A stretch of 56,342 bases of DNA, filler included, from Sluysia triapertura (Eukaryota): the NCBI GenBank assembly GCA_046118255.1. It is 4 parts of 4 records of this genome, joined end to end, with 100 filler letters (N's around TTAATTAATTAA, not from the genome) between each part and the next. Parts side by side here need not be neighbours in the genome. Positions count along the whole stretch, not along the records: positions 1 to 15,982 come from JBJNIA010210921.1; 3 more parts are not named here. The stretch is one strand, 5' to 3'. The position numbers and the translations under genes are program-made. Under the pieces are notes generated by a model. It did no database searches, was not told the origin of the DNA, and saw nothing but the letters and a program-made list of their open reading frames with translations. Position 1 is the first letter of the stretch, and every line of letters begins with the position of its first letter. Below, piece by piece: positions 9,096 to 12,000 of this stretch.

Positions 9096-12000
9096 TTTTG
9101 AAATATGTATATTTAAAGGTAACAAAATTGCTTATTTCGAAATTCGAAATGCGACATTATTCTAACATTCTATTCTAATGTGAAATATTTTGTTTAAATT
9201 CAAAATTTAAATAACATGTTACTGTTAACAATTTCTATAGTATGACAAGTTTTATTAATTTGAGATACAATTTCTTTTAATTGATAATTGATTATTTTTT
9301 GTAATATTTTATTTGACTGTTGCAACATTCACTAAAATTCAAAACCATAATAAACAAATAGTATATTTACTATAATAAGTAGAAAATTGTGATCCATTTT
9401 ACATAATTGGAAAATTGTTATAAACATTAATTGTCTCTATGAATATACATATTATATTGAAATTATATGATATTTGATGTGTTTGATGATATTTGACATA
9501 CCATACATTGAAATTAGGTGATTTTACATGTATAACGCATTATACAAAGTTTACTGATTTTATGCAGTCAAAATTATTGATTTAAAAGCAGAATATATTA
9601 CGATTTTGAGGCATTCGCATATTTTGGAATTATTTTCACATATATTCTATCGCCACTATAAATTTATCGAGTAGTGCCAATGTGCAAAATTTTTTCAAGT
9701 TTTCATAAAAATAAAAAAATTGGTCCATGCCATAATTTGAGGAGCAGCACTCCTGGTAAAACTTCAAAGATGAAGTAGATTCGGAGGACTTATGATTATT
9801 AATTAAACTTAAATTTAGATCTGATTTTACTAGTTTTCTTTCTTTTAAGGATTTAATATTAGTGCTTTTATGATTGTTCCTGTGGAACTTTGAATGATAG
9901 GCTACTACTTTCGAAATGAGTTCGGTTCTGCCTAACTCGAGTATGCTAGTATGCGGAATAACGTTATAAATTATAAATGTTTCATTATGATTCTTAATAT
10001 TCGTAAGTATATTTGCTTCGAAGCTTTCATAGAAAATTTTAATTTTAAGTACATTACCAAATGATCCGATTGTTTGACTATTAATAAACTTGTATTCGTA
10101 TAGTTTATCGAGAGATAAATAAAATATTTTAGACCTATAATCACGAATTATAATAATAAAATTAACAAGATAAAATTTTATTAAAAAACAAGATTTTTCA
10201 ATTATAAGAATTAATTTATTTATGGTTGGTACTTTAATTGTCTGTCTTTTTTTCGAAAATTCAGTTGGTTTTTTCACAGAATTTTGTGTTGCACCTCATC
10301 GATCCGGTTAAACATTTTTTGAACTAAATAAAAATTACATAAATATATAAAATTAATACTAACAAGACAATTCTTACAACTAAACGCGTTATTCCTCTTT
10401 ACATTTGTAGTTGCTTCATTGCATCATCGTTATCGAATGGTTGTACTTTAAAGAAACATGATCCAGTCTGACGCCTTGTGGTGGTTAACATTACTTGTCG
10501 ATAAAGTTTGATATTCACAATCAATATATAATGTCGTTGGTCTTTCAATATCACTGTCATCGTGCACAAAATCTTTATCTTTTTTATTTATCAGGATTGA
10601 ATTTTCATCATCTTGTCGGAGCTCATTATAATCAATTTCTAAAATTTCTTCAGATTCGAACGAATTTTCGTCAATAGGAACATAATCTCTTTTATTTATT
10701 TTAATAGGATCTTCTTTAGTATCAAACAAATCAGGGAGATAATACTGCAACGACTTGGATAATTCTAACCTTTTTAGAGACTGAACAATTGCTTCAATTT
10801 CATCTCGTGCAAAATTTATGTTATTTGTGTCAACTTTATTAAACTTTTTATTAGTATCAACTGGAAAATAGAAATTATATGAATTTCGACTCTTACATAC
10901 AATTATCGGTGTAATATTATCCGATCTAATTAGAATTTCTAATATGTTGTATTGGGATATCCAGTATGAAGTATTAGTCCGTTTGGTAAAATAGTTGGTT
11001 TATCTTCTGATTTCGGTAACATTAGTGAGCCTGTTTGAATTAATACTTCTTTTTTGAAACTGTCGTTATTTGATAAACAATTAATAAAAATAGATTTGGA
11101 AGCTACATCTGGTAGGTCTTTGATATTGTATCGCGATACACTTTCTCGTGAGTACGTACTATTTGATTGTGATTCTTTGTATTTCATTGTAAGTCGATTA
11201 CTTGTTTTAAAATGAGTGTCGCTCGTAATAAGATAAACTTTATATGACTCTAAAACATCTTCTTTGATTGTTCTTTTTAAGTCGTTATCAATAAAACTAT
11301 CATAACTTGTTAATCGTCGAATCCATAAGTTATCATTTGATAAATAAGCCAATCTTACATCGTTATCTAGTACTGATAATACGTTTTCATTTGTTACATA
11401 AGTAGTGCTCATAAGATTTTTAGTGATATTCAATTGCATTACAAAAATTGTTTATTAATTGATTGCTAAATGCATAAATTGTAATTATTGTTATGACTAA
11501 ATTTTTTAAGTTGACTTGAAAACTCATTGAAAATTGTGAAACAATTTTTGCTGTCCACTATTGTTCGCTCAATCAGAGTATTTTGTGGATTTAATCAGTA
11601 ATGTATACTCTCATTGAGTAATGACTAAAATTAATTTGTAAAATTGAGTACATACCGTCAGCCGAAATCAGTGCTGTCATTAAAATGACATTTTTTAAAC
11701 AGGGTATCAGCAATGATGACGGCAGCAACCAACTTAATGAAATGACTCAAAATTTATTAAAAATAATTTGCACCATTAATAGCAATAATAATAATACTAA
11801 TAATAATAACAATAATAATAATAATAGTAATAATGTTATTATTATTATTATTAATAATTGAAATTAAATGCATAAACATCTTTGAACTTTCTACACGATC
11901 ATTTCTGTTATGTTCTTAATCTTCTACATATATAAAATTAAAAGGCATAAAACTAATGAAATACTGTGAAGGAACAACGATAACAAGGTATACTAGTCTC

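Follow-up and report, generated by a model that had tools for sequence, protein, structure and literature searches.

Two inverted repeats, lying one after the other inside a repeated element of Sluysia triapertura, can each be drawn as a hairpin, and between distant copies of the element their arms differ on both sides at once. The question raised by this locus is whether such double changes are the classic compensation of a selected RNA structure, or whether the symmetry belongs to the DNA and has been kept or restored there in some other way. The window, that is, the whole stretch of 56,342 nucleotides which was analysed, consists of four pieces of 11–15 kb joined by 100-base linkers, with a GC content of 20–33% per kilobase. 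The linkers (15983-16082, 31196-31295 and 42268-42367) are identical, being N's with a six-frame stop word, and the pieces are perhaps non-adjacent in the genome. Every named relative of the transporter at 213-1583 is a flatworm protein (53 matches, the best named at 60% identity), which makes the host a flatworm. Outside the element, the minus strand of 42368-56342 carries a spliced host gene coding for the thioredoxin-like domains PF18403 and PF18402, and fragments near 53000 and 55500 resemble, by eye, a decayed Tc1/mariner transposase. A tandem array with a unit of 19–20 bp lies at 30126-30278, two related tRNA-containing repeats, one of which scores as tRNA in Rfam, lie at 30884-31019 and 32828-32963, and a broken frame on the minus strand at 31780-32343 looks by eye like the start of a retrotransposon gag, with no Pfam match.

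Four copies of the element, here called E1, E4, E5 and E6, were recognised, with a size range of 2–2.8 kb, and only E4 has both ends intact. E4 (20577..22554, minus strand) is a complete unit of 1,978 bp with TG...CA ends, inserted in another repeat (repeat B) and flanked by a GTTAA duplication at 22555-22559 and 20572-20576; another repeat B copy runs colinear with its flanks through the junction. Seven contigs join 20571 to 22555, and of the 15 joint rows listed 11 bridge the insertion, all of which may come from other copies of repeat B. E5 (23876..26700, plus strand) has the same 5' end, hairpin 1 at 24771-24832, a damaged hairpin 2 and a CCAAT box at 24932, its final bases being apparently deleted, while E6 (36995..39594, plus strand) has the same 5' end, hairpin 1 at 37703-37765, a CCAAT box at 37839 and a probable end with CTATT on both sides, a 5-mer match that was picked post hoc. 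E1 lies on the minus strand; its 5' terminus, TGTGG... at 12679, and its G-poor leader together occupy 11870..12679, and an alignment search for the 3' terminus did not find it (score 100.5, with shuffles averaging 97.4).

The ends of E4 agree with the animal LTR consensus TGTTRNR...YNYAACA, as given in PMC3601003, at 6/7 and 7/7 positions; against the same consensus the 3' end of E6 is one base off, and E1 and E5 offer only their 5' ends. The duplications, GTTAA at E4 and the probable CTATT at E6, fall within the 3–6 bp of Gypsy/Metaviridae LTR elements (PMC10045372). AATAAA, the word of a poly(A) signal, stands before a T-rich run within 100 bp of the 3' end in both E4 and E5, although at 25% GC such words occur often. 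In E4 no long repeat, inverted or direct, was found at the termini, comparison of its first and last 200 bp giving only a short AT-rich internal match. Neither a full-length element nor gag-pol, a primer-binding site or a polypurine tract was found in the flanks beside the ends or elsewhere in the window. The frames scanned held no integrase-like transposase, which non-autonomous copies would lack in any case, and a six-frame Pfam scan of 42368-56342, outside the four copies, detected no reverse transcriptase, integrase or transposase. From these ends and duplications, the unit is on balance probably a solo LTR, failing which it would be a non-autonomous DNA element with short ends.

Repeat B was found at 7064-8044, 14094-14480, 20369-20576, 22555-22861, 23558-23875 and 26702-27372. 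It starts with TGTG, is far commoner than the element, reaches a contig depth near 900,000 at 20500-20573, and has received both E4 and E5 as insertions, at differing positions. A two-copy stretch at 16193-16607 and 27385-27790, with a word like the 5' arm of hairpin 1 and a short palindrome of its own, may be a related control module of repeat B. TGTGG starts like the 5' end of the element also occur at 17082, 19482 and 29329, all on the plus strand; downstream of 17082 come a stretch poor in G, a run of ATT near 17900 and a frame (18103-18525), and the hairpin pair was not detected there. A search of metagenome contigs for the two-arm pattern gave 0 matches. In the literature searched, no description of such an element was found; the supplements of the original Burro paper may describe matching long LTRs.

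Downstream of the stems, each copy carries an open frame of its own. That of E4 (20780..21208, minus strand) is short and broken and contains, at residues 52-81, an Unkempt-type CCCH finger (Pfam PF25427, E 2.8e-7, 30.8 bits, just below the cut-off of 31.1). At the place of this frame E5 and E6 bear different ones: in E5, a broken frame (25022-26481, plus strand) with a KIDINS220-like SAM domain (Pfam, E 1.9e-11), placed before the shared 3' part; in E6, a 920-bp frame (38040-38962, plus strand) followed by a weak CCCH finger near 39090-39173 (E 0.0029), with a similarity match between E4 and E6 of E 1e-5. The E1 cargo frame (10451..11439, minus strand) is in two pieces (11439-10942 and 10999-10451) and matches no assigned family. 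Homologue searches returned nothing for the first 222 residues of the E5 cargo and nothing among longer proteins for its SAM part, where one unnamed 134-residue protein was found at 44%, and the searches with the E1 and E6 cargoes gave no usable match. Host-gene capture is suggested as the origin of the cargo by one Pfam domain only.

Since E1 is the divergent copy, its homology with the others comes first. It is distant, yet well supported: the arms of hairpin 1 align without gaps, a covariance model recovers them, and the order of the parts is the same, so that on this point the earlier note on this DNA was right. The E1 5' arm is identical to those of E4 and E5 at 17/27 positions; of 112,707 places compared, only 10 and 9 respectively do as well, and half of these are the elements' own arms; with E6 the identity is only 14/27, reached at 292 places. 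A covariance model of E4, E5 and E6 gave 11653-11736 on the minus strand, matched over the whole model, as the best of 25 matches outside the training stems (E about 0.01), while sequence-only profiles detect E1 weakly (E 0.47 and 0.85) and a profile of the sequence before the palindrome missed it. From the 5' terminal motif to hairpin 1 there are 947 bp in E1, 886 bp in E5, 968 bp in E4 and 699 bp in E6. E1 has in common with the others this terminal motif, the G-poor leader (4–6% G in the first 600 bp), the order of parts and an (AAT)n...(ATT)n palindrome directly upstream of hairpin 1, at 11779..11856 in E1 and present in all four elements. E1 alone has a further hairpin (11967..12018, minus strand, z -6.2), with no counterpart in the aligned stretch of E4, E5 and E6; it is likely a lineage-specific inverted copy, and suggests that inverted copies arise within the element.

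The next point is which bases pair. Hairpin 1 of E1 (11661..11723, minus strand) has its arms at 11723-11706 and 11678-11661, separated by a loop of 27–28 nt, and as an ungapped homologue it corresponds to the E4 stem at 21516..21577 (minus strand); loop lengths in the four copies are 28, 27, 27 and 28 nt. The earlier note had paired E1 in another register. The letters that it quoted are indeed present on the minus strand (5' arm 11723-11706, a 7-nt bulge at 11666-11660 and an outer five nucleotides at 11659-11655), and RNAfold prefers this bulged register, weakly, with z of only -1.8 and -1.2, so that the stem of the E1 copy is not clearly better than shuffles. As homologous pairing it was rejected, since MAFFT aligns E1 with E4, E5 and E6 with no gap in either arm, and the variants of related contigs oppose it as well. 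Its outer five bases resemble a small tandem duplication, and their pairing would hold with a single wobble. In the ungapped register, the 18 pairs of the E1 copy comprise 13 Watson-Crick pairs, one G-U and four mismatches, and three double changes separate it from the E4/E5/E6 type (two from A-U to G-C, one from G-C to C-G). This is a modest number, reached by 18 of 500 shuffles and with a probability of 0.011–0.08 under a null of independent arm substitution. Two of the four double-changed pairs once claimed for this copy are among them, the other two are not, and one at the outer end had been overlooked.

The E1 copy is a decayed representative of its lineage. Related contigs were taken from one public run, consisting of short contigs of unrecorded kind and possibly the source of the window itself, and 101 of them over 11500-11775 were surveyed; variants from this run are unlinked contig counts, and contig depth does not equal copy number. 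On the plus strand, position 11665 is T in 96% of the depth (9 contigs) and 11666 is C in 94% (8 contigs). In the ungapped register these letters pair with 11719 and 11718, and two mismatches of E1 are thus private to the copy. The linkage of these variants in one molecule is deduced from frequencies, since the contig counts are unlinked. For the lineage so defined, five double changes and one T-C mismatch separate it from the E4 type in 16 pairs: 6/16 positions differ in the 5' arm and 5/16 in the 3' arm, and all five are complementary, for which simulation under independent arm substitution gave a chance of 5e-6 to 2e-4. The base changes named in the earlier note therefore hold for the E1 lineage, because its contigs carry the pairing letters at 11665 and 11666; they had been read off a pairing displaced by 7 nt, and the fifth was missed. 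The T-C mismatch is fixed in the E1 stem, with no variant row at 11713 or 11671 among the contigs of the run. From the alignment and the contigs, the apparent covariation is half artefact, due to a wrong register and a decayed copy, and half real, between two lineages.

What has been conserved depends on which copies are compared. When the E1 lineage is set against the E4/E5/E6 type it is true, as had been proposed, that pairing and not sequence was maintained: the arms are 56–67% alike, not above the flanks at 54–66%. Among E4, E5 and E6 the proposal does not apply, the sequence itself being kept, with arms 83–94% alike against 41–77% for the loops, 39–70% for the spacers and 54–69% for the flanks. 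In hairpin 1 the commonest pair is Watson-Crick at 18/18 positions, with two G-U cells in 72, and in the shared core (alignment columns 20-30) 8 of 11 positions are invariant. Every double change separates E1 from the other three copies and none occurs among E4, E5 and E6; complementary partner rows, sought in the 33 E1 variant rows of the run, were not found. Of the five that fall in hairpin 1, three are adjacent, so that with a single lineage contrast one arm-to-arm copying event could yield all of them. Such conversion between the arms, which the earlier note itself had raised as a caveat, appears to be the most economical source of the pattern. It is not frequent, given the T-C mismatch fixed inside the E1 stem, nor does copying alone account for the conservation of the arms or for the pile-up of contigs on the E4 hairpins. 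In fact, the hairpin bins of E4 have a contig depth of 5,493–10,310, against 56–81 in the 150 bp downstream, about 100-fold less, and two variant sites in these hairpins are covered by 90 and 54 contigs, where just downstream there are 2–3. Together, the conserved arms and the pile-up show the module to be under constraint.

Hairpin 2 provides a possible link with transcription. In E1 it lies at 11568..11618 (minus strand), with a 14-bp stem containing one mismatch and a 23-nt loop (z -3.3), and in E4 at 21399..21470 (minus strand), with a CCAAT box (21408) at its end. The two had been described as different in sequence at the same position; the E1 3' arm matches E4, E5 and E6 at 13–14 of 22 positions and shares the core of the E4 arm, which contradicts that description and makes the second hairpins homologous as well. 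One double change, T-A to C-G, lies in the shared core, where on either arm of E4-type copies it hits the T of a CCAAT-like word. In the related contigs, 11612 is G in 98% and 11617 is G in 91% of the depth (24 and 26 contigs), and these contigs of the E1 lineage have a CCAAT box in the 5' arm of hairpin 2, the E1 copy itself having none. CCAAT with flanks like the NF-Y consensus used for matching stands at the same place and on the same strand in E4, E5 and E6, accounting for three of 13 such matches in the window. In E5 and E6 the 5' arm is partly deleted and folding is lost (z -0.85 and +0.45), so that pairing is absent from two of four copies, while the 3' arm with CCAAT is retained, E4 and E5 being identical at 22/22 positions; this retention was counted in favour of a DNA role. 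From the CCAAT box it is 90–228 bp to the first ATG of the open frame. A CCAAT box is typically found at -60/-100 relative to the start site, as described in PMC11802806, which would place the stems upstream of that transcript.

The reading that we favour, tentatively and with slightly less than even confidence, is that the stems, which are homologous inverted repeats, form a symmetric DNA control module of the promoter predicted near the CCAAT box. Both stems lie in the middle of a 2–2.8 kb TG...CA unit, likely the solo LTR of a Gypsy-type retrotransposon, and their symmetric arms, to which proteins would bind, would control the predicted promoter of the frame that follows. Selection would keep the shared core and the distance between the arms; a change in one arm would be copied onto the other by a polymerase or reverse transcriptase, so that outer positions change jointly, the arms being likely re-matched in blocks by template switching rather than by stepwise selection. 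Clustered compensation of several bases in one step is the pattern of template switches (PMC8794818). No single known factor explains the arms, since in E4-type copies the CCAAT-like word is hit, while neither E1 arm has the GATA-like word that E4-type arms contain. The predominance of Watson-Crick pairs at every position of hairpin 1 speaks for DNA, and so does a CTG(A/G)T word, which occurs 3–4 times per module against 0.4–0.5 expected (P 0.0008–0.012, a value which paired arms inflate), and outside the stems as well. It also counts against a DNA control module in an LTR that both hairpins have the size of miRNA precursors and that no full-length parent element was found next to the ends.

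Selection of the stems as RNA, either as a two-hairpin small-RNA precursor or as a structured site bound by the element's own CCCH finger, is a serious though doubtful alternative. A miRNA precursor is a hairpin of about 60–70 nt with a long stem, and the hairpins here span some 60–68 nt, with stems at z -3 to -5.7 in the intact copies. The better conservation of arms than loops and the roughly 100-fold drop in depth downstream suit an RNA too, as do the five double changes of hairpin 1 plus the one of hairpin 2, the recurrence of mismatches at pairs 8 and 11 in all four copies, and the fact that the hairpin 2 change spoils the CCAAT-like word in both E4-type arms. Moreover, foamy-virus LTRs are described as having two-hairpin miRNA cassettes in U3 (PMC6950176). 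Against these points there is no strand signal, the cargo strand of hairpin 1 having two G-U against three A-C cells, which favours neither strand, and the better-folding strand varying among copies; in addition, the 27–28 nt loops are AT-rich and unstructured, and hairpin 2 has lost its pairing in half of the copies. A known RNA family or a described miRNA family was rejected, no Rfam family reaching its gathering score: E1 had no match up to E 1, and E4 had eight weak matches far below the cut-offs.

A broader scheme, rather unlikely as a whole, would combine both levels: an invertebrate Gypsy-type LTR turned gene cassette, with a two-hairpin RNA module and a promoter in place, room for coding pieces captured from the host, and an RNA-binding finger of the Unkempt type, the RNA module being in U3, in which the hairpins would be small-RNA precursors or the binding site of the finger, and each solo LTR would leave a chimeric gene.

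It is unlikely that the symmetry has no function, the stems being old inverted repeats sometimes re-matched by template switching and only the adjoining promoter being selected. All double changes come from one lineage contrast, the element accumulates other inverted repeats (the AAT/ATT palindrome and the extra E1 hairpin), and a single template switch can compensate several bases according to PMC8794818. Arm copying, however, cannot keep different copies alike, and yet the arms of E4, E5 and E6 exceed their flanks in likeness, with constant spacing. Also unlikely, finally, is a non-autonomous cut-and-paste element with TGT...ACA ends, of the Ginger or IS481EU kind, whose stems would be internal binding or cruciform sites for moving or capturing host DNA: a TGTNR-type 5' end and a 5-bp duplication are also reported for Ginger2/TDD (PMC2836005), the cargo does lie between the two ends of a single unit and gag-pol was not found, but the stems are 700–970 bp from the nearer end, and E4, with about 8 bp and no alignable longer repeat where Ginger terminal inverted repeats measure 40–270 bp (PMC2836005), falls outside the Ginger definition because it has no long terminal inverted repeat.

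These results underline that covariation should count as RNA evidence only once the copying of whole blocks from arm to arm has been excluded. In addition, the complete E4 supplies both ends and a target duplication, so that a loosely defined cassette becomes an element that can be tested. Should the unit be an LTR whose cargo sits within a single terminal repeat, its solo LTRs would spread chimeras of promoter and host fragment through the flatworm genome, by a route different from capture between two LTRs. LTR-mediated retrocopies, as described in PMC5131818, resemble the present case in having host-like coding pieces in an element with LTR-type ends; the capture occurs there between two LTRs, whereas here the piece sits within a single TG...CA unit that lacks an internal direct repeat. 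With the solo LTRs of Metaviridae (Gypsy/Ty3), including planarian Burro, the element shares consensus TG...CA ends, a 5-bp duplication, the lack of a long terminal inverted repeat and a flatworm host (PMC3601003, PMC6431247). The likeness to Burro is one of description, not of sequence, and animal Gypsy LTR sets average 170–700 bp in PMC3601003, whereas the unit here is of 2–2.8 kb, with a zinc-finger frame and variable cargo and with no internal body found.

The foamy-virus dumbbell pri-miRNA cassette also has two adjacent hairpins in the upstream LTR part, U3 (PMC6950176), but a Pol III dumbbell pri-miRNA of that type fails for the present element, whose span is 156 nt (E1) or 175 nt (E4), against 111–128 nt and no internal terminator in the description of PMC6950176, which has a 35–46 nt spacer, and contains T runs of at least 4 within the cassette, on the cargo strand in all four copies and on the other strand in E1. 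The compensation by template switching reported in PMC8794818 is alike in its clustered double changes and de novo perfect stems; the signal of that study lies mainly at short loops in RNA genes, while the loops here are of 23–28 nt. Closest of all is the region rich in palindromes in the LTRs of maize Sireviruses: according to PMC4728375, paired palindromes there lie upstream of the promoter and symmetry, not sequence, is kept between families. Those elements are plant Copia with about seven palindromes per LTR, whereas two long-loop inverted pairs are present here, in an animal element with a frame inside the unit. Nevertheless, the resemblance extends to paired symmetric words in the upstream half of the LTR that are capable of forming hairpins, for which both cis-regulatory and small-RNA roles have been discussed (PMC4728375).
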